From assembly GCA_963820775.1 (NCBI GenBank), contig CAWGBF010000013.1, positions 168,258 through 232,257 on the forward strand: a stretch of 64,000 bases of DNA, read 5' to 3'. Positions within the stretch are counted from its first letter, which is position 1. Each line of letters begins with the position of its first letter. Origin of the DNA: an uncultured Alphaproteobacteria bacterium. Lineage in GTDB: Bacteria > Pseudomonadota > Alphaproteobacteria > Rhizobiales > Beijerinckiaceae. This document shows, in pieces, positions 1 through 9,835 of this stretch. A program made the position numbers and the translations under genes. The notes beneath the pieces were generated by a model, which worked only from the letters and a program-made list of their open reading frames with translations, searched no databases and was not told the DNA's origin.

Positions 1-1
1 C

Positions 2-238
2 TGCGCATGCGGCGAGGTACACCCGTCCGCGCTCACTCTCAGGCGCGGACGGTTCGCCTGTGGGAATTGTCTTGGCCGTGAGCGTGGAGCGAGAGAGGGC
101 CGATGCGCCAAATGCGGGAACATTGCACCACTTCAAGGACACCATGTGTTCGGCCGCGAGAACTCGGATGAGGTCGTGGACTGGTGCATCAATTGTCACC
201 AGAAACACCATAAAGGTCGGAAAACTAGGAATGGGTAG
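2..238 (+). CDS. HNH endonuclease / Zn-finger protein, 5' partial (absent from the ORF track)
   Basis: Frame 2 from the window start reads CACGEVHP...CGNC...CAKCGNIAPLQGHHVFGRENSDEVVDWCINCHQKHHKG...* (CxxC-HH-N-CxxCH-H pattern). Its TAG (236-238) overlaps the polB ATG (231). Confidence 0.72.
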   Translation, partial: CACGEVHPSALTLRRGRFACGNCLGRERGAREGRCAKCGNIAPLQGHHVFGRENSDEVVDWCINCHQKHHKGRKTRNG

Positions 239-3200
239 TCAGCCTCAAGAAATCTTCAATCCGGTCGTCGCCCGGCTCCGCGCCTTCTCCTGGCCTGACA
301 AAGACGTTGGTGGCCCCATAAAGCCCTTTTCCGAAACGGATGAGGAATTGCTCGTCTACATCTCAGAATGGGAGGACAACGAGCGAAAGGGCAAAAACGC
401 AAGGCAATATTGCCGCTTCCAGGGCGAACTGCAGCGCCGATACATCAAGCAGATTGCGGCCGCCATTCCTGAATGGGGAGCTTGGGGCGCTCGCACATGC
501 GTCCTCGACACAGAGACGCAGAACGTCGAAACGGGGCAGGCCATGCGCTTCGGCGTCGCCCAGATGCGAGGCTATAGCTACCATGAACTGATCGAATTCA
601 TGCAGCGTGAAAGCCGCCCACCTAATCGGGCCGAACTCGACACACTTCGCGAGGTCTACGTCTTCTACGACCCGAACATGATCGAAATCGATGCGGCCCT
701 CCGCGACGCCTCGCTTGCGCTATTGGAGACCGTGCGCAAGTCCCGTGAGGCCACGACGGGCATTCCTCACCATCTCGTCACGCGCGACCAATTTGTCGAG
801 GATATTCTGTTTCGCAATGAGCGGATCAAGGGCGCGGTCCCGATCCCTGTCCTAGTTTTGGGACACAAGCTCGACTTCGATCTTGAACGCCTGCCCGCAT
901 TCGGCGCCGGTATGGCAAAGGGTGATTTTTTCTACGGGGGATTTTCCCTCACCATGGGGCGAAGCGTCTTCAAGGGCGGCAAAAATAAAGGAAAGCCTAG
1001 CGGGCCGGTCATCCAACTCAAGAAGATAGGGCCTGGAAAAAACAATTACCGAGCGGTGAGCCGGTTCAACGCTCATCTTCATACGCATCAATTTGTCGAC
1101 ACGCTCATGCTCGCCAAGGCGCTGCTTGGGGCAGACACGCCAGGTAGCATGGATGCGCTCTGCGATCTGTTCAAGGGGCCATTGCCCAAAGAGGAAGTCG
1201 AGCACTTCAAGCCGCTCACCCGCGACTATGTGGAATACTGCCTAAACGATGTCGAACGGACATGGTTCATCTACACGCGGCTGCGCGAGCTTTACCAGCA
1301 GCATGGTCGGACAACGCCAATCTGGGGCTTGTACAGCGTCGCCTCGGTCGGAAAGGCCTATTACAAGGACTTCGGGATCGAGCCGTTCCTCCACAAAAAT
1401 ATGAAAGGCTCGGCGGCGAACAAGCTGAAGACCCTGAAGCTGTGTGGCGTGTCGATGGAAGCCATGATCGGCGCACGCGCGGAGTGCGGTATCCGTCATC
1501 AAATCCGCGAGGTCATCAACAAAGATTTCAAGTCCCAATATCCGACCATCAACATCAAGCTCGGCTTGCAGGACTTGCTGCTTGCAGAGCGCGTCGACAC
1601 TCATGAGGATGAATGCACAGCAAGCGGCGATTGGCTCAAGGGCGGCGAGGACGCCGCGTTCCTCGAAAGCGTCAGCATCCTCGATATGGATGATGGAGCA
1701 GGCGCTCCTTACATCTTCGGCGACCACGCATTGCTCGGCAAAGATAAGAGCCGGTCGGATAAGATGTGGCGACAATTGCTCGGCTTCGCGCTGATCGATC
1801 CGGCCGGAGCAATTCTTCCGCTGCGCACCGCCTTTCAAGACGCTGCCGACAATGATGACGGTAAAGCCTCGATCAATGTCGGTCTAACGGAAATAGAACA
1901 CGGCCCCGCTATATGGGTCACATATCTCGACGTTCTCGCCTCCAAGTTCCTGACCGGCAGGATGCCCCGACTTCTCAAGACCATGCGAATGGTCCCTGTC
2001 GGTCGCCAATCAAACCTGGAGAAAATCAGCTTCTTCGGCGACGCCGCCTATGAGATTGACTTGACGCAACCCGACGGCGACATATTCAAGCGCATCCTGG
2101 AAATGCGCGATGAGATCAAGGCGAAGATGAGTGATCTCGCCAAAGGAAGTCAGGAGTACAATCGGCTCAACGCCATGCAACTTGCGCTCAAGCTCATCGC
2201 CAACAGCACATCATACGGTGTCTTCGTGCAGGTCGATGTCGATGAGCGTGCAAAGCCGACAAAAATCTCAGTTCTTCATGGGACTGACGAGAGGAAAATC
2301 GTCGCCCGCCAAAGAACAAGAACTGATGACGGATCGCAGGAAGCATCCTCGATCAAGGTGGAGAAGCCGGGATCATGGTTTGCGCCGTGGGGGCCGTTGA
2401 TCACGGCAGGCGGGCGGATGTTGATAGCCATCGCAGAGACACTGGCGCGTCATGAGGGGCGAGCTTACGGCGGTATTCCCTATGGCATGTGCGACACGGA
2501 CAGCATGGCGTTCGTGCGCCCTGAGGCCATGCCTCGCGCCGAATTCCGCGCCGTCGTCGAACGCATCGGCCGCTATTTCCAGAGGATCAACCCTTACGCG
2601 TCAGTGAACGGCAAGGAGGTCGAAGTCTTTGCGACCGAGGACATCAACTTCGCGTTCACGAATGAGGGCGGCAAGTTCAAGATCGTCAAGCCGAAACAGA
2701 TGAAGCCGCTCTACATCCTGTCAATTTCCGCCAAGCGCTACGCCATAGCGAATATCGTCCGGCCGGACGGTTCGGACTATGACAGCCTCGAAGACCTTCA
2801 CGCAGACTGGCGCAACGCCGTCGTCATCCTGAGAAAGGTTTCCGCGCACGGCCTCGGTCCGATCACAGCGCCCGGCTATGCCTTGCCGCCCGACGACGGC
2901 GTTCATCTCGCCGTCCCGTTCAAGTACGGCGACGATGGCGAGCTTGTCTTGAAGGATGGCAAGCCAGTTCCCCTCTATAGCGAAGTATGCCACGGCAAGG
3001 GCAATGCCCGGCTTTTCCTCGACATGTGGAAGCGCGCATTTGAACTGTTTGTGCAACATGAAGGCCTGAAAACAGGCCGAGAGATTGCGCGCCTGATCGA
3101 AGTTGAAATGCACAAATGGCCAGGCCTCGATCAACCCCAGTTCAAGCAGCGATCCCTGAATACGTGGAGCCAGTTCAAGCAATATGGGAACCTGCGAAAT

Positions 3201-4661
3201 CGGCGGGCTGGAATGTTCTTCAACGTCCTTCCCGCGCCCCTTGACGCTGATTTTGGAATGGTCGGTCAATCGTTCGACATAGATCAATATTTCGGCAAGT
3301 CGCTTTATTGCCAAGGCGGCTCCGACATCAATGTCGTCAAACTGCTCGCTGAAGGCCAAGTATGGTGGCAGTCCGACAACGGGTCAGCCTCGAATTTCGT
3401 CGGCGAACATAAGCCCTATCGGCTGCAAACGGTCGCTGAAGCGATCGGCGATTATTTCGACCGGACGGAGTTCAAGGCAAAAGGGGAATACGGCAGGCTT
3501 GAACGCCACAGGGTAGCCGTCTCTCAGCGTGAATATGTGGGCAAGGAGACAAACTTCCTGCTGGACCCCGATCTGCCGGAGGATGATGAAACCCAGATTG
3601 AAGATGCTGCCGCCGCTCCATATTTTCGCTACGGTTTCAATCCGGTGTTGAGGGCTCAATATCTTGCCATTCCGGATATTGTCGAACTGCTTGATGTTGC
3701 GTCGCTCGATGCGCTCAAGGACATCCTGAACGGATATGCGCCATCCGATCATGCAAGGCGCGTCTTGGCGCATCTGCGCAAGGGAACGCGATACGATGAA
3801 CTAACAGGAACATGTGCGTTCGACAGCTTCATTCGTGAGGCCGATATAGCTGAGTGGCAGACGGCGCGTCTTGTCGACCTGGCGCGGCGTAGCTACCGCA
3901 AAATCAGCAAGGCTTGCGCCAACGTGAACCAGAAACCGCTTGTTGCGCTCGCTGCGCATTTCGGATTGCTTCCCAAACGCGATTATGATGCGTCACCCTT
4001 TGGTCAACACCATGATAGATTTGAAGAGAATTTAGCTCACGACCTGTTCAATCCGATGCTCTATCCCGACAAAGCAGCGGCCGTCATCAAGCTGGGTTTC
4101 GTGAGAGCGCGGTCGGGTCAGGAATTACGTGTGGACGAAGCCTTCGCCATGTTCGAAAGCTATCTCGGAATTGCGCAGCATAAAGAGCGCGCCGCAAAGT
4201 TCACGAAAAATCTCAATGTCGACCGCCGCGAACGGCGCGCTGCGCGGCGATTGCAGTCCAAGAAAATGTTGATGCAGGCAGTCTCCAAAATTCAGATGGC
4301 CACGCTAGACGATCATGTCCGGATGCTAAAGAAAATGTTTGTTGAAGATTACGGTTTTGATCCGGCCGACGTCGAGGAAAGCTCGCCGAATATCGTGAGA
4401 CTGGCGGTCTGTTGGCCGCTCGCTCATCCTGACTTTCAAATGCTGTTCCGCCGCCACACACAGACACGCCGGGCGCGACCCGAGATCAAACGCTTCGTAC
4501 ATGACTTGCTCGAACGTGCGACCGACCACGCTGAGCGCGTCAAGGCGCGAAAGCGCGTCCAGAAACGCCGCTCACGCATGAAACAGTCGCGCCAATTGAG
4601 AGACGGCAGCGTCCAAGTCGGCTTGGGAGATGGCGACGGCGTTAAGGAACTCGACGCTTAA
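231..4661 (+). CDS. polB: Family B DNA polymerase with 3'-5' exonuclease domain and long C-terminal extension (casposon-type)
   Basis: Exo I VLDTETQ, Exo II HKLDFDL, Exo III YCLNDV; pol motif A DFKSQYP, motif B KLIANSTSYG, motif C CDTDSM, and SAKRY. ATG 231 is preferred over the track's GTG 60 because it overlaps the HNH stop. Confidence 0.92.
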   Translation: MGSQPQEIFNPVVARLRAFSWPDKDVGGPIKPFSETDEELLVYISEWEDNERKGKNARQYCRFQGELQRRYIKQIAAAIPEWGAWGARTCVLDTETQNVETGQAMRFGVAQMRGYSYHELIEFMQRESRPPNRAELDTLREVYVFYDPNMIEIDAALRDASLALLETVRKSREATTGIPHHLVTRDQFVEDILFRNERIKGAVPIPVLVLGHKLDFDLERLPAFGAGMAKGDFFYGGFSLTMGRSVFKGGKNKGKPSGPVIQLKKIGPGKNNYRAVSRFNAHLHTHQFVDTLMLAKALLGADTPGSMDALCDLFKGPLPKEEVEHFKPLTRDYVEYCLNDVERTWFIYTRLRELYQQHGRTTPIWGLYSVASVGKAYYKDFGIEPFLHKNMKGSAANKLKTLKLCGVSMEAMIGARAECGIRHQIREVINKDFKSQYPTINIKLGLQDLLLAERVDTHEDECTASGDWLKGGEDAAFLESVSILDMDDGAGAPYIFGDHALLGKDKSRSDKMWRQLLGFALIDPAGAILPLRTAFQDAADNDDGKASINVGLTEIEHGPAIWVTYLDVLASKFLTGRMPRLLKTMRMVPVGRQSNLEKISFFGDAAYEIDLTQPDGDIFKRILEMRDEIKAKMSDLAKGSQEYNRLNAMQLALKLIANSTSYGVFVQVDVDERAKPTKISVLHGTDERKIVARQRTRTDDGSQEASSIKVEKPGSWFAPWGPLITAGGRMLIAIAETLARHEGRAYGGIPYGMCDTDSMAFVRPEAMPRAEFRAVVERIGRYFQRINPYASVNGKEVEVFATEDINFAFTNEGGKFKIVKPKQMKPLYILSISAKRYAIANIVRPDGSDYDSLEDLHADWRNAVVILRKVSAHGLGPITAPGYALPPDDGVHLAVPFKYGDDGELVLKDGKPVPLYSEVCHGKGNARLFLDMWKRAFELFVQHEGLKTGREIARLIEVEMHKWPGLDQPQFKQRSLNTWSQFKQYGNLRNRRAGMFFNVLPAPLDADFGMVGQSFDIDQYFGKSLYCQGGSDINVVKLLAEGQVWWQSDNGSASNFVGEHKPYRLQTVAEAIGDYFDRTEFKAKGEYGRLERHRVAVSQREYVGKETNFLLDPDLPEDDETQIEDAAAAPYFRYGFNPVLRAQYLAIPDIVELLDVASLDALKDILNGYAPSDHARRVLAHLRKGTRYDELTGTCAFDSFIREADIAEWQTARLVDLARRSYRKISKACANVNQKPLVALAAHFGLLPKRDYDASPFGQHHDRFEENLAHDLFNPMLYPDKAAAVIKLGFVRARSGQELRVDEAFAMFESYLGIAQHKERAAKFTKNLNVDRRERRAARRLQSKKMLMQAVSKIQMATLDDHVRMLKKMFVEDYGFDPADVEESSPNIVRLAVCWPLAHPDFQMLFRRHTQTRRARPEIKRFVHDLLERATDHAERVKARKRVQKRRSRMKQSRQLRDGSVQVGLGDGDGVKELDA

Positions 4662-5819
4662 GCCGCCGCTCGTCTTCACCGTACCATCGTTGACGCGTAT
4701 GAATTCGCCCGGCGCAAAGGACCGTCCGTCGATGAAGTTGAACACTGCGGCCTCAACATGAGGCCTGAGGGGCTCGATCACGTCATAGGCGAGCGGCCAG
4801 CGCGGGCTCTTATGCAGAACGCCAATGGCGGGATTGAAGCCTTGCGCTGCGAGCGCGACAACGAGACGCCCAATCGTGACAGCGAGCGCGAGATTGAGAA
4901 GCGCATTGATCGGGTCTGTCGCGTGATGGGAGAACTTGCGATCAAGACGCCTGCGCTGCGAAAAGGGAAGCTTCCACGATGCTGGAATATGCCCCGCCTC
5001 ACGCCAACGCATGACGATAGGCCTTTCGGCCCACGCAAGCCGCGCTGCTTGCGCTTCAGTCATCAGCAGGGACCGCTCTGTTTCGGCCGCTTGCACTGCA
5101 CTGAGCTTGCCCTGAGCCTTGTCGAAGGGCATCGCGCCAAGATGCATGTGAGCGCTGATTTTTGCAGCGATCAGCGCCTTCGCATGGGCGAGGGCATGGG
5201 CGGGCGACGCTATGGCCCCACTCTGCGCACGGGCTACGCGCGCTGCCCGCCGCGCCGGAAGCGCCATTGCGGTCATGAAGTCCCGATCCCAGTCGAGGAT
5301 GACGACAGCGATCTTGTGCTTTGCGCAGAAGCGCAACGCGGCAAGCGTAATGACGCCTCCCCACCCGGTCATGACGATGGCGCTCGGCTTGACGGCGCGG
5401 GGCTCATAAACGAGCGTCATCGCATCTCTTGCGGCGATGAGCGCTCCGCGTTTGACGCTGAGGCTCACGCTGTCTCCGGTCAGTGTGAGAACATTCGATG
5501 GCTTGACTGGTGTGCTGCTTTTGCCGCCGCTCAATCGAACGAGAGACGTTTGCGCGGGCGCGCAGCCCTCACTGTCTCTCGAGCTTTGCCTGCCCTCATG
5601 GCAACTGGCGTCGAGGGGCTGTCGAACCGCGCGGTCGTTTGCGGTCTTCAGAGCCTGTCGAAGGGCTCGCGAGCGCAACATGACGTCGAAACTCGACCGA
5701 GCATAAGGCCGCGCGGCTGTCGAGGCATAAACTTCATACGCCCGTCGCTCCGTAGTCTCGCCGCTCGCAATCGCCTCTCGGACGGCGCTCACGTCTATCG
5801 GGTCGCATCTCGCTCGCAT
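4572..5819 (-). CDS. cas1: Solo Cas1-family integrase (casposase) with N-terminal extension
   Basis: Cas1 motifs: ITLAALRFCAKHKIAVVILDW, LLMTEAQAARLAW (catalytic E), ATDPINALLN, GVLH (catalytic H), LAYDVIEPLRP (D/E). No cas2 or array nearby. Confidence 0.9.
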   Translation of the reverse strand: MRARCDPIDVSAVREAIASGETTERRAYEVYASTAARPYARSSFDVMLRSRALRQALKTANDRAVRQPLDASCHEGRQSSRDSEGCAPAQTSLVRLSGGKSSTPVKPSNVLTLTGDSVSLSVKRGALIAARDAMTLVYEPRAVKPSAIVMTGWGGVITLAALRFCAKHKIAVVILDWDRDFMTAMALPARRAARVARAQSGAIASPAHALAHAKALIAAKISAHMHLGAMPFDKAQGKLSAVQAAETERSLLMTEAQAARLAWAERPIVMRWREAGHIPASWKLPFSQRRRLDRKFSHHATDPINALLNLALAVTIGRLVVALAAQGFNPAIGVLHKSPRWPLAYDVIEPLRPHVEAAVFNFIDGRSFAPGEFIRVNDGTVKTSGGLSVEFLNAVAISQADLDAAVSQLARLFHA

Positions 5820-5949
5820 TCGGCAACGCTACGATGGACGGCGCGGCGCGTCATCCTGGCGCTGCCCGCACTCGCGAAAGCTGGTGTGGATAAGCCCGGC
5901 CGAGAAGGGGAACCCCCCAATCGTTGGTCTTCGTCGCAGTCGGACCTCA

Positions 5950-5999
5950 ACCTCCGCCAATTCTGTTGACCGAATTTCGAGTTCGGTCACATTGGAGGT
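5950..5999. repeat. Imperfect inverted repeat / hairpin
   Basis: TGACCGAA (5967-5974) / TTCGGTCA (5982-5989) perfect inner stem; outer arms CCAAT/ATTGG and ACCTCC/GGAGGT. Confidence 0.7.
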
Positions 6000-6089
6000 C
6001 GCCGATGCGTGCATGCAATTGTGACCGGGTGGACCGGCTTGCAATGGTACGTCGTCGTGAGGAGTTTGGTTAGGTTATTGAGTCTCCCA

Positions 6090-9000
6090 ATGCAACATCG
6101 TCCTCCCGACCCCCGGTCCTTGACCGCGAGCGATTTGTCCAAGATTCTAAGAGAGACAGAAGGACTAAAGCTTGAGTTTAAACTAGAATACGATCTCTCA
6201 GGGGGGGCCGGTAGCGAACAACGAAAAGGTGAGTTTGCCAAAGACATCCTTTCGCTCGTCAACACGGCAGGGCGAAACGCTTTTGACTTTGCCTATATGG
6301 TGATCGGAGCTGGAGATAAGATACAAGCGGACGGCAGCAGGCTTCGCAAGTCGATATTGTCCGGCCAGTATACATCTCCATTAGTACTGGACATCGTAAA
6401 CGCCTCCTGCGCTCCACAAATCAAAGAGATGATAATCACTGAAATCGAGGTCGATGAGACGCTGTACTGTGTTATCGTATTACCTCCGTCACCTCAAATC
6501 CATAGCTTCTCTAAGAATATCGTTACCCCGAAGCGTACGTGGCAAAAGAACGCTGTTCCACTTCGCAGCGGTGAGGGAGTTATTCTAGCGTCTCCAGACG
6601 ATCTATTTCTGATGCAGAAACAGAAGATGGCTTCGATTCTAACAGACGAGGCTGACGATTTCGAAAACATTGTCCCACTTTTTGCGAAATATACTCCCAC
6701 TCCCCTGCCATCCGGCATTCGTGCGAAGCGCGCCGTAAGCCAGCTCTTAGCGTTTTTGAATCCGCGGCCGCATGACGCAGGCGTTGTAGAGTCGACTAAA
6801 GATTTTTTGGGTCTGCTTCAGCAATACCGGCATATCGCACTGGAAGGGTCCTCGGGATCCGGAAAAACAACAACGCTGCGCCAGATTGAGACGTCGTTAC
6901 TCAAACGTGGGACTTCTGACTCTCCACCTATCCCACTTCGTATAGACATTGATGATTGGATCGCAGCGGACATTCCATTCCACATTTGGCTGCAGAAGTA
7001 CCTCTTAAAAAGAGGACTGAGCCACCTACCACTATCTAAATTCGCGTTGCTGATTGACGGCATTCAAGAGTTCGATACGGCTCAACCAAGCTTTACGCAC
7101 GATTTGATCCGCGGTATTTCAGATAAAGTGTCAGATATATGTTGTATAGTGACGGCACGGTCGTTCCCGCTCGAGGGCATGCCCTCCGATTTTTTGGTGG
7201 CGCGGCTCGAACCATTGTCGGGGACGCAAACTAACGTCTTTGTCGACGCTTACTTGGAACCTTCGCTCGCCGAGGAGTTTCGTAGTTGGCTTTCGCGATT
7301 TGAAATTGCGACGACCGCGACTCGACAATTATTGGAAGACATCGTTCGAAATCCACTTCGCCTTTCAATTTTGTTGAGCGTCTACGCAGTTGAGCGGGAG
7401 AAAACGCCTCGCGCCCTGGGTCAATTGCTACTGCAGTTCTTCACTATAGTCTGCGAGCGAGAGAAAGCCTTTCATGGGTTTGTCGACGTGACACTCGACG
7501 AAATTATTGAGTGGCTTGCTCCTGCTGCATTGAAGATGCTCGCCAACCCTAAAGTCAGTAGGGTGCTGCTGGAGGCACCGAGCGAACGAGAGAGAGTTTT
7601 AGGGCGACTTTTGGTCGGGTCGGAAATTATTTCAGCTATCGAGGAAAGGCCGGGCATCAACGTAAAATTTTGTCATACTCTTGTACGCGATTTTTTTGCC
7701 GCCCTTAATATTGCGAGACACCCAGAGCTTTTACAGAGAGGACTTCATCCTCCGAGATTTAAAAACGGAAGCCGGACCGTTAGCCCATGCGATGAGGTTC
7801 TGCTCCTTTTATCCTCCCTCGAAAACGCGCAGGAAGTTTTCCAGAAGGCCGCTAGTATTGACCCTCTAATTGTTTTAGAGTTATCCTCAACTGTCACTGA
7901 GGACGTAATCGACGGATCCGTTATTAAATCAGCCTGGACTAGTCTTTGTCTACTTCTGACTCATAAGACGAACGTCGTACGCACCCTCGCGCTTGAGCTA
8001 TGCCGCAGGCGGGCTGTACGACTTAGAGAGCTGGTCCCCGCTACTTACGCAGAAACCCACAATCCCGCATTGCGAAAGGTGTGCCTCCAGTTGGCGTGGT
8101 ATGCGAATGACGCGGAGAGCATCAAACTTATATGTCGCGCAATCTCTGATCAAAACAGAACTGTGCGAAGGTTAGCGCGGGACATTTTTCTTGGAATAGC
8201 CAACGAAGATCACGCGGAGGCAGCTCGCATCGCGAGAAACGTTGTCGATAGTCTTGATCGTGAGGAGCGTGACTTTTGGCGATCTTCCTTCGAAACGGTG
8301 GGAAACCACCTTAGCGATGAAGGGAGGAGATCTTTTTCTGATCTAATTTCGAATGTGGCGAGCCGTGACGTATCGGACGACTTTTCTAGCGTGTGGTGTT
8401 CTGGAGAGGCTCGTGAATCTCATAGTCTGGACGTAGACCAAAGCTCTGCGGAATTTATAGCCCTAATTACACGGCTAGGTTTCTGCGACGCTGATGACGC
8501 TGTCCAAGTCTTAGCCAAATTAAGGGATTTTGCAAATTCATATCTAAAAGAAGTTCATTTACTGGCAAAGTCAGGCAATCCGGTACTTGCGCGCCGACTG
8601 CCACGGCTAATGTCGTATGCCCAAGATCCAAGTTCAGTCGACGTTCTCTTTCGGCTCTTGGAGGTCGATGACTTAAGGGTAACCATGCATGTATTGAAGG
8701 CTCTATCTTCGTTTCGTAGATCGGACATAGCCGAGCGCGTTCGTGTATATTGCTACATCGCTGATCACCAAGTGAGGCTTCATGCTGTACGCGTTATGGC
8801 TAATCAAGACCACGTTGACGAACAGTTTTTGTTGAACTTTCTCTCGGATCGGCATCAAGAGACTCGTCGTGCGGCTGTGGTAGCGCTTGGACGAATAGGC
8901 AATGATGAGTTTGTAGTGCGGTGCTTGGACTTGCTAATTGATCCCGATGAACACGTAAGGATGGCGGCGTGTCGGACAGCCGTCCGAGCGGGACCGAAGG

Positions 9001-9347
9001 CGGTGCCACGGCTTACGTTGTGTCTGATGGGCGACGAGAGCGATCAAGTAAGGCGACGGGCGCTATTAGCTCTTTTCGAAGTCGATCCAGCTGAAGGAAG
9101 AAGAAAGGCCGTAGATTTTTTCTTCGATCCGGATACGCCAGATATATTGGCGGGTACCGCGTTAGCCCAACTTTTAGCGTTCGCGACCGGGGAGTTTCAA
9201 GAACATCTTCTGGCTTTTGGCGAGGTGCGGACGGGTAAAAGCGTAACAAAGGCCATCAGGGAGTGGAAAACCTCAAGAGACCCGGGCGGAGACAGCCTTT
9301 TTGCGGACCGCGGCAATGCCGGGACCCAGGGGCCCTCCAAAACCTGA
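6090..9347 (+). CDS. AlbA_2/Schlafen - NACHT-like STAND NTPase - HEAT repeat protein (putative anti-phage NLR-like protein)
   Basis: N-terminal EGLKLEFK...KDILSLVNT...MVIGAGD (Schlafen/AlbA_2); Walker A GSSGSGKT; Walker B-like LLIDGIQE; IVTAR; C-terminal HEAT-like repeats (VRRAAVVALG, VRMAAC, VRRRALLAL). Visibly AT-richer than the host genes. Confidence 0.8.
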   Translation: MQHRPPDPRSLTASDLSKILRETEGLKLEFKLEYDLSGGAGSEQRKGEFAKDILSLVNTAGRNAFDFAYMVIGAGDKIQADGSRLRKSILSGQYTSPLVLDIVNASCAPQIKEMIITEIEVDETLYCVIVLPPSPQIHSFSKNIVTPKRTWQKNAVPLRSGEGVILASPDDLFLMQKQKMASILTDEADDFENIVPLFAKYTPTPLPSGIRAKRAVSQLLAFLNPRPHDAGVVESTKDFLGLLQQYRHIALEGSSGSGKTTTLRQIETSLLKRGTSDSPPIPLRIDIDDWIAADIPFHIWLQKYLLKRGLSHLPLSKFALLIDGIQEFDTAQPSFTHDLIRGISDKVSDICCIVTARSFPLEGMPSDFLVARLEPLSGTQTNVFVDAYLEPSLAEEFRSWLSRFEIATTATRQLLEDIVRNPLRLSILLSVYAVEREKTPRALGQLLLQFFTIVCEREKAFHGFVDVTLDEIIEWLAPAALKMLANPKVSRVLLEAPSERERVLGRLLVGSEIISAIEERPGINVKFCHTLVRDFFAALNIARHPELLQRGLHPPRFKNGSRTVSPCDEVLLLLSSLENAQEVFQKAASIDPLIVLELSSTVTEDVIDGSVIKSAWTSLCLLLTHKTNVVRTLALELCRRRAVRLRELVPATYAETHNPALRKVCLQLAWYANDAESIKLICRAISDQNRTVRRLARDIFLGIANEDHAEAARIARNVVDSLDREERDFWRSSFETVGNHLSDEGRRSFSDLISNVASRDVSDDFSSVWCSGEARESHSLDVDQSSAEFIALITRLGFCDADDAVQVLAKLRDFANSYLKEVHLLAKSGNPVLARRLPRLMSYAQDPSSVDVLFRLLEVDDLRVTMHVLKALSSFRRSDIAERVRVYCYIADHQVRLHAVRVMANQDHVDEQFLLNFLSDRHQETRRAAVVALGRIGNDEFVVRCLDLLIDPDEHVRMAACRTAVRAGPKAVPRLTLCLMGDESDQVRRRALLALFEVDPAEGRRKAVDFFFDPDTPDILAGTALAQLLAFATGEFQEHLLAFGEVRTGKSVTKAIREWKTSRDPGGDSLFADRGNAGTQGPSKT

Positions 9348-9670
9348 ACTCCGCGACGCCGCTAAAGGGGTAGAACTCGCGGCAAAGTTCCTCGTCGGCT
9401 TTAGCAGTGGAGGATGGGCTGCTCCTCGCGCAATTCTCCCGCACCGAACGACCGCAAACGGGATGGCCAATATTTGTTGTGATTTTAAGCGGCTAAGGTG
9501 GCGCGCGTCGTAGTATTGTTTATGTATTGACGGAATTAGTTGTAGCAACTCAGTAGGCCGCCCGAAACGTGAGATCGTGCGAAAAAGCCGACGCAGGCGA
9601 GGGTGAGCTTCAGAAAAACAACATGTCGCCGAAAACGGTGGACTGTCCCGGCATCCTTACTTAGGGCTAT

Positions 9671-9720
9671 TTTGCTTGGATTTGTTTGGTCGGGCTTGGT
9701 CTGGCTTGGATTTGTTTGGC
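9671..9720. repeat. Tandem array of five degenerate 10-mers
   Basis: tttgcttgga tttgtttggt cgggcttggt ctggcttgga tttgtttggc. Confidence 0.7.
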
Positions 9721-9835
9721 AGGAACTCGCGCGTGGGTTGAATCCGGGGCTTCGCTCGGGACCGGCCCGCCGCTTGCCGCGACGTCGCGGTCGGCGCTTA
9801 ATGGCGGCCGATCGAGCCCGCGAACGGAGCCGCCC

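Follow-up and report, generated by a model that had tools for sequence, protein, structure and literature searches.

A probable casposon with an enlarged family B polymerase, inserted in a dispersed palindromic repeat of an alphaproteobacterial genome

Core genes of the locus

The stretch of DNA analyzed here (the window) comprises 64,000 nucleotides of contig C13 in a 17-contig assembly (C13:168258-232257; GenBank CAWGBF010000013.1) from an uncultured alphaproteobacterium of the family Beijerinckiaceae. It opens with the core genes of a putative casposon, a type of transposon thought to be ancestral to the CRISPR adaptation machinery. To our knowledge, experimental insight into casposases comes from three archaeal enzymes, and the published bacterial elements are only a handful. 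The core comprises a small HNH nuclease gene, the gene of an enlarged family B DNA polymerase (PolB) and, facing both, a solo cas1 gene. Negative positions lie upstream of the window, where 20 kb were fetched (L002); L-numbers denote fetched loci and G-numbers genomes. Relatives were taken from a catalogue of Nanopore metagenome-assembled genomes (MAGs).

The HNH gene (87 amino acids, plus strand) runs from window position -25 to 238, of which 1 to 238 lie inside the window, and starts at L002:19976. It was identified by alignment, profile and context. Its product carries the motif CxxC...HH...CxNCH; across the alignment the pattern CxxC...H...CxxCH was invariant and the first histidine of the HH pair near-invariant. 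A profile of the HNH family matched the McrA HNH structure 6GHC (E 3.7e-5), and the Pfam HNH model PF01844 was matched by 7 of 21 family members. Homologous small HNH genes stand beside PolB in Nitrosomonas, Marinicauda, Kordiimonas and Thermoplasmata loci, and in all close relatives the gene lies directly 5' of polB. Its stop codon overlaps the polB ATG at position 231. Upstream, a further reading frame of 187 codons (orf187, L002:19410-19973) overlaps the HNH start with its stop codon in the sequence TGAGATG. Orf187, HNH gene and polB are translationally coupled and converge on cas1. Orf187 is kept upstream of the HNH gene within the clade of the element, faintly also in the sister clade, and searches of Pfam and PADLOC returned no match for it.

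PolB (1476 amino acids, 231 to 4661, plus strand) was recognized by motif alignment, profile and homology to the polymerases of other casposons. Its Pfam score stayed below threshold (21.6 bits, cut-off 23), and the identification draws mainly on motif conservation and on this homology. In an alignment of the protein with 18 Cas1-adjacent PolBs, D217 of Exo II, Y336 and D340 of Exo III, D432, S435 and Y437 of motif A, Y662 and G663 of motif B, D755, T756 and D757 of motif C as well as K835-R836-Y837 (KxY) were invariant; D93 and E95 of Exo I and K654 of motif B were near-invariant. The profile built from these 19 sequences matched only family B polymerases in the PDB. A core of about residues 78 to 1166 is common to other casposon PolBs, and the N-terminal ~57 and C-terminal ~310 residues (1167-1476) are specific to the clade, where the protein measures 1277-1702 amino acids versus ~830-1090 in other bacterial casposon loci. 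The element is hence predicted to encode a family B DNA polymerase of its own.

The cas1 gene (4572 to 5819, minus strand) encodes a solo Cas1 homologue of 415 amino acids, a putative casposase according to Pfam, TIGRFAM and PDB matches, tree and structural model. It converges with polB, and the 3' ends of the two genes overlap by 90 nt. The protein matched Pfam Cas_Cas1 (PF01867, E 1e-25) and TIGR00287 (74.4 bits, cut-off 71.7). Of the catalytic residues, E255 and H336 were invariant and D346 and E349 near-invariant in the alignment. Its best sequence match in the PDB was the Methanosarcina mazei casposase 6OPM (1.2e-16), ahead of CRISPR Cas1 proteins (7e-9 or worse). An AlphaFold (AF2) model with a predicted local distance difference test score (pLDDT) of 80 has the Cas1 fold, and its top three Foldseek matches were chains of 6OPM. 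In the model, an N-terminal three-helix module (residues ~1-66, pLDDT 80-92) is followed by a disordered linker (66-103) and the Cas1 fold (~105-415). The N-terminal module of ~50 residues, RCDPFD...ETT..RAYE.YASTAARPYARSSFE, is conserved among the Cas1 relatives. The protein is therefore predicted to be an integrase of the Cas1 family whose catalytic residues are intact.

Pfam and TIGRFAM name the protein a CRISPR Cas1, and homologues carry the public annotation 'CRISPR-associated Cas1', as would be expected of a remnant of a CRISPR-Cas adaptation module. Such an origin is, however, extremely improbable. Neither the window nor the 20 kb before it showed a CRISPR or tandem array, and no cas2 or other cas gene lies nearby. 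Genome-wide, a single weak Cas2-like match was obtained (C13:401653-401844, 27 bits, E 2.2e-5, in a 190-codon frame), ~224 kb away. None of the CRISPR-subtype-specific TIGRFAM Cas1 models came near its own cut-off, a casposase is the best match in both sequence and fold, and the PolB and HNH genes are always adjacent.

A tree of 72 Cas1 proteins, with supports from the Shimodaira-Hasegawa-like approximate likelihood ratio test (SH-aLRT) and six CRISPR references only, points the same way. It placed the protein in a clade of 12 members (SH-aLRT 98), and a large PolB adjoins Cas1 in 10 of the 11 other members (none was seen for L017). The sister group of this clade (SH-aLRT 94) is another alphaproteobacterial clade, and the two stand apart from a Henriciella/Sphingomonas/Caulobacter-type clade (32 rows, SH-aLRT 99), from a clade of Nitrosomonas and Chloroflexota, and from the archaeal Thermoplasmata clade. 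Four CRISPR Cas1 proteins with adjacent cas2 (I-C, I-U and two gammaproteobacterial ones) split off at SH-aLRT 99. Leaving aside two unstable CRISPR references (discussed below), the sequences place the protein with the casposases (Cas1-solo group 2), not with CRISPR Cas1. A plasmid search with Cas1 returned only seven weak CRISPR Cas1 matches, none related to the element, which served as outgroups.

At least 120 Cas1 relatives, nearly all metagenomic, were found among clusters at 90% identity. A scan of species-representative genomes revealed 79 Cas1 loci, with a homologous PolB adjoining Cas1 in about 50. The first-pass annotation had read the locus as a bacterial casposon built on an HNH, PolB and solo Cas1 triad, with complete Exo and Pol motifs, intact Cas1 catalytic motifs, unusual additions to both core enzymes and neither cas2 nor an array. 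Each of these points is borne out, the additions being real and conserved across the clade. Likewise, the polB and cas1 co-occurrence and the position of Cas1 apart from the four stable CRISPR references, which the same annotation had proposed to check, agree with it.

Ends, insertion site and cargo

That annotation had delimited the casposon as positions 1-5920, which is the core only. The whole element measures 15,458 bp and extends from window position -5791 to 9666 (C13:162466-177923), so that 1 to 9666 fall inside the window. These limits are given by a pair of terminal inverted repeats with a target-site duplication (TSD) of 14 bp and by the empty site in two other genomes (G024 and G008), and an automated end scan agrees on the length. 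Self-comparison revealed a single significant inverted repeat, -5791 to -5748 against 9666 to 9623. Its core of 44 nt is 95% identical (E 1.6e-13) and extends imperfectly to 125-150 nt. The right terminal inverted repeat thus occupies 9517 to 9666 (minus strand), with the core at 9623-9666. The termini read 5'-CCCTAAGTAAGG...CCTTACTTAGGG-3', the outermost bases being 5'-CCCTAAG...CTTAGGG-3'. Immediately outside both ends lies a perfect direct repeat of 14 bp, CTATTTTGCTTGGA, or of 15 bp if an ambiguous G is included; its left copy is at L002:14195-14208 (window -5805 to -5792) and its right copy at 9667 to 9680 (plus strand). Of the two regions put forward earlier as candidate termini, 9350-9720 does contain the right end. 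The other, 5820-6000, is part of the intergenic region from which cas1 and the NACHT gene diverge (5820 to 6008), which is internal to the element and has neither an inverted nor a direct copy. We had initially taken ACCAAAYAAATCCAAGC as the outer part of the inverted repeat, but a genome-wide motif search identified it as a palindromic host repeat, and the true terminal inverted repeat starts at CCCTAAG.

The flanks were joined with one copy of the duplication and searched against 40 relatives. Junction-spanning matches were obtained in two genomes of the same genus, G024 and G008, where the repeat is uninterrupted at the orthologous site. In G024, for which alone the site was aligned, the order from ureC through the unbroken repeat to the right-flank genes is preserved. 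Both the duplication and the empty site had been named beforehand as checks on the casposon reading, and both were found. The spread of the element is patchy: a Cas1 relative occurs in 12 of 61 genomes of the genus, a close one in just one. Close relatives all come from MAGs of soil Alphaproteobacteria, some of which hold several loci, and the same core recurs in other genomes, where both its site and its cargo differ. Mobility is thus evidenced by empty orthologous sites, patchy distribution and several copies per genome in related MAGs.

At the DNA level, conservation with the closest relatives (L008 and L007) is confined to window -689 to 5860, a block of ~6.5 kb holding orf187, the HNH gene, polB and cas1. 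The ratios of nonsynonymous to synonymous substitution (dN/dS) against L008 were 0.135 for PolB, 0.166 for Cas1, 0.34 for HNH and 0.24 for orf187, indicating that the core genes are under purifying selection. The two arms carry variable cargo. The right arm carries a gene for a STAND/NACHT NTPase with C-terminal HEAT repeats (1112 amino acids, 6009 to 9347, plus strand; Pfam and PADLOC), which is variable cargo, since L007 and L008 lack it. In the left arm, an EcoRI-like methyltransferase gene and a GmrSD_N/HNH restriction gene occupy L002:14711-17342 (window -5289 to -2658). Between this restriction cargo and the core we observed a 30-nt tandem repeat (6.4 copies, 77% matches, L002:17609-17799, window -2391 to -2201). 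It lies inside a minus-strand open reading frame (ORF) of 202 codons and would give QRSAAPSAPT-like repeats if translated; the repeat may be part of a coding sequence or form an array of the iteron type.

Outside the terminal inverted repeats, between ureC and the casposon, lies a stretch of low GC content (44-56%, L002:11200-14100, window -8800 to -5900). It holds two TIR-domain genes, one of 348 codons with ThsB/SAVED-TIR-like matches, and a BrnT/BrnA-like toxin-antitoxin pair. G024 has ~1.7 kb of other DNA in its place. This stretch is an accessory region separate from the casposon.

Target repeat and fixed insertion offset

The insertion site lies inside a dispersed intergenic repeat. Its motif CGTAACCCATTGAAAAG occurs 116 times in the genome (at most 2 mismatches in 17), and 106 of the 116 copies are outside long ORFs. 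Because the element sits in this repeat, its left flank matched several related loci. The repeat is made up of a T-run, CGTAACCCATTGAAAAG, a hairpin with a 17-bp stem and short iterations of the GCTTGG/TTTATTTG type. It comes in several variants, is found in genomes of the same genus too, and is exemplified by window 9681-9722 and L002:14120-14208. The former (plus strand) is the 3' remainder of the split host repeat, with the right hairpin arm and GCTTGG iterations, and joining the flanks rebuilds an intact copy. Folded as DNA, the rebuilt target forms a hairpin with a 17-bp stem and a 6-nt loop (-15.4 kcal/mol). The duplicated sequence starts at the final base of the 5' arm, takes in the loop and ends 7 nt into the 3' arm. 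ARAGORN and Rfam found neither a tRNA nor a known RNA in the left-flank motif, and the repeat has no Rfam entry. A role of the repeat as promoter or terminator was likewise dismissed, since a crude ORF-based count gave no clean orientation rule: of the 106 copies, 73 have their downstream gene on the opposite strand and 56 share the strand of their upstream gene.

The duplication starts exactly 36 nt after CGTAACCCATTGAAAAG in every one of the eight insertions resolved for the clade (the element itself, L004, L006, L007, L013, L014, L020 and L115), and elements occur in both orientations relative to the motif. Duplications of 14 bp were also seen in L013, L014, L020, L021, L023 and L025. In the sister clade the offset within the same repeat family is ~26 nt (L025, L026 and probably L033), and at least one sister element (L023) is inserted elsewhere. 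The type of end sequence and the offset thus co-vary with the Cas1 clade, 36 nt versus ~26 nt.

This co-variation bears on whether the ends belong to the Cas1-PolB genes at all. The inverted repeats and the duplication might be those of another transposon or of the palindromic host repeat, with Cas1 and PolB as mere passengers. The target is palindromic indeed, so that some of what looked like the outer inverted repeat (ACCAAAYAAATCCAAGC) comes from the host, and insertion sequence (IS) elements occur near other loci. We nevertheless consider this explanation very unlikely. Between the ends we saw no other transposase or recombinase gene, and the terminal inverted repeat proper (CCCTAAGTAAGG...) has no copy in the genome beyond the two ends of the element. 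Moreover, the ends and the offset follow the Cas1 clade, and a 14-bp duplication is a casposase signature: the Aciduliprofundum boonei casposase yields duplications of 14-15 bp (PMC9939771), and a median of 15 has been reported for casposons (PMC4046053).

The eight independent insertions under one offset rule likewise speak against an immobile, domesticated Cas1-PolB module that would serve host defence or repair from within a defence island. The surroundings abound in defence-type genes (TIR-domain genes, BrnT/A, the restriction-modification-like pair and the NACHT-HEAT NTPase) and the genome holds only one full copy of the element, both of which would suit domestication. But the terminal inverted repeats do not enclose the TIR-domain and BrnT/A genes. 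The inverted repeats and the 14-bp duplication are precise, relatives have empty sites, and the core is found with other cargo at other sites in other genomes. We give domestication only a very small probability.

Some observations weigh against a casposon. The single full copy in the genome has just been named. The methyltransferase and restriction cargo is split over four or five overlapping frames, which may reflect decay into pseudogenes or Nanopore indel errors, the latter if the assembly is Nanopore-derived. The Pfam and PDB matches of PolB are weak by E-value. Finally, the E. coli I-E and the type II Cas1 form long branches that are unstable inside the casposase polytomy, so that the tree separates the protein from four CRISPR Cas1 only, not from all CRISPR Cas1. 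Taking the gene content, the ends, the duplication and the empty site together, we are highly confident that the element is a genuine casposon, that is, a self-synthesizing transposon integrated by a Cas1-family casposase of predicted activity.

By analogy with the casposases of A. boonei and M. mazei, an oligomer of the enzyme would attack the two target strands at points 14 bp apart by means of the element's 3'-OH ends, and the duplication would arise when the gaps are repaired. The fixed offset suggests that the enzyme is positioned by the repeat, where the cue may be the upstream leader-like motif or the hairpin itself. A candidate reader is the conserved N-terminal helical module of Cas1, alone or together with orf187. 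Replication might be carried out by the element's own PolB, possibly with nicking by the HNH protein. It is tempting to go further and see in the casposase a proto-CRISPR integrase, which would combine a leader-like motif with a 36-nt ruler to duplicate 14 bp of a palindromic repeat of ~116 copies, the clade-specific N-terminal module, with or without orf187, acting as the reader and the sister clade using a ruler of ~26 nt. We put this forward tentatively, at less than even chances. If true, it would be a natural bacterial case of 'leader plus palindromic repeat' integration by the Cas1 family, with a multi-copy target versus a single tRNA or EF-2 site. Casposon targets in the searchable literature are tRNA 3' ends, the aEF-2 gene and unspecified intergenic sites (PMC4046053, PMC9939771).

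The locus adds a bacterial lineage whose ends are clean, whose empty site has been verified, whose core genes are under purifying selection and whose targeting follows a precise, testable rule. The 36-nt rule bears on how Cas1 enzymes came to recognize a leader and a palindromic repeat, and casposon replication and target choice can be approached through the enlarged polymerase and the N-terminal module of the casposase. The element also shows that casposons in soil Alphaproteobacteria carry cargo of a defence type.

Related loci and comparison with known systems

Several related loci merit description. One MAG (MFD05377.bin.2.157) holds five Cas1 loci of the two clades (L009, L012, L016, L018 and L023) and another (MFD01716.bin.1.139) three more, which suggests proliferation in some hosts. 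The genome under study itself encodes a second solo Cas1 on contig C2 (C2:324120-325352, L090:10120-11352, minus strand; 411 amino acids, Pfam 1.7e-35), which belongs to the Henriciella/Sphingomonas-type clade and is adjoined by neither a PolB gene nor cas2 nor an array. Encoded near it are an IS110 transposase, a Cas1 fragment, a CHAT-domain protein of 1186 amino acids and the reverse transcriptase of a group II intron. On the same contig, 230 kb from the second Cas1, a frameshifted casposon PolB of family 3 type (C2:91587-94439, L091) is 37-49% identical to the casposon PolBs of Sphingomonas and Henriciella and is probably a decayed second casposon. An isolated 43-residue fragment (C2:224329-224457, L092:6329-6457), 65% identical to the N-terminal module of the casposase, may be a relic of another copy.

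The sister alphaproteobacterial clade (L019-L039) shares the host group and 14-bp duplications with the element, and two to three of its members sit in the same repeat family. Its elements (L021:2957-21082, L025:2823-20319 and L023:2050-18687) are ~17-18 kb long and differ in their GGGGGG ends, in terminal inverted repeats of 160-440 nt and in the shorter offset. In the one member examined, L021, a polymerase of 785 amino acids that matches the protein-primed DNA_pol_B_2 (E 5.6e-6) replaces the large PolB.

Pipolins (PMC5695915, PMC11551731) are likewise bacterial integrative elements with a family B polymerase and defence cargo. However, they use tyrosine recombinases, usually reside in tRNA genes and are bordered by direct repeats, whereas the element described here has Cas1, terminal inverted repeats, a 14-bp duplication and no recombinase. 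Its PolB aligns with casposon PolBs, and an assignment to pipolins was rejected.

Bacterial casposons have been published as family 3, with HenMar-C1 of Henriciella marina and NitAL212-C1 of Nitrosomonas sp. AL212 (PMC4046053). We compared the element with modern proxies of these published elements, used in place of the reference sequences themselves. Common to both are a bacterial host, including Alphaproteobacteria, a solo Cas1, a PolB, a small homologous HNH gene, terminal inverted repeats, a duplication near the median of 15 bp and cargo of methyltransferase and restriction type. Over ~800 residues, the core of PolB shares 26-32% identity with Cas1-adjacent PolBs of Henriciella, Sphingomonas, Marinicauda and Nitrosomonas loci. 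The Cas1, in contrast, fell outside the clade of the family 3 proxies, into a separate and well-supported one, and is 25-30% identical over the Cas1 domain only. Further differences concern gene order and domains. The cas1 and polB genes converge with overlapping 3' ends, whereas in family 3 polB lies ~2 kb upstream on the opposite strand. PolB is enlarged to 1277-1702 amino acids by, among others, the clade-specific C-terminal ~310 residues, against ~830-1090. Cas1 carries the N-terminal helical module, where family 3 proteins have no extra domain or a C-terminal helix-turn-helix (HTH) domain (PMC4046053). Judged by these sequences, the lineage is new relative to family 3, with a separate Cas1 clade and shared PolB and HNH ancestry, and the literature searched contained no description of it.

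Family 2, with AciBoo-C1 of A. boonei and the casposon of M. mazei, is distinguished by archaeal hosts, a casposase with a C-terminal HTH domain, a smaller polymerase and a target at the 3' end of a single-copy tRNA gene, as opposed to a repeat of ~116 copies. It provides, with 6OPM, the best sequence and fold match of the casposase, and its duplications measure 14-15 bp. In family 2 elements, the integration point keeps a fixed position with respect to an upstream motif and the palindromic T-psi-C arm of the tRNA (PMC5137440, PMC6977970, PMC9939771); in mechanism, this comes closest to the 36-nt offset described here.

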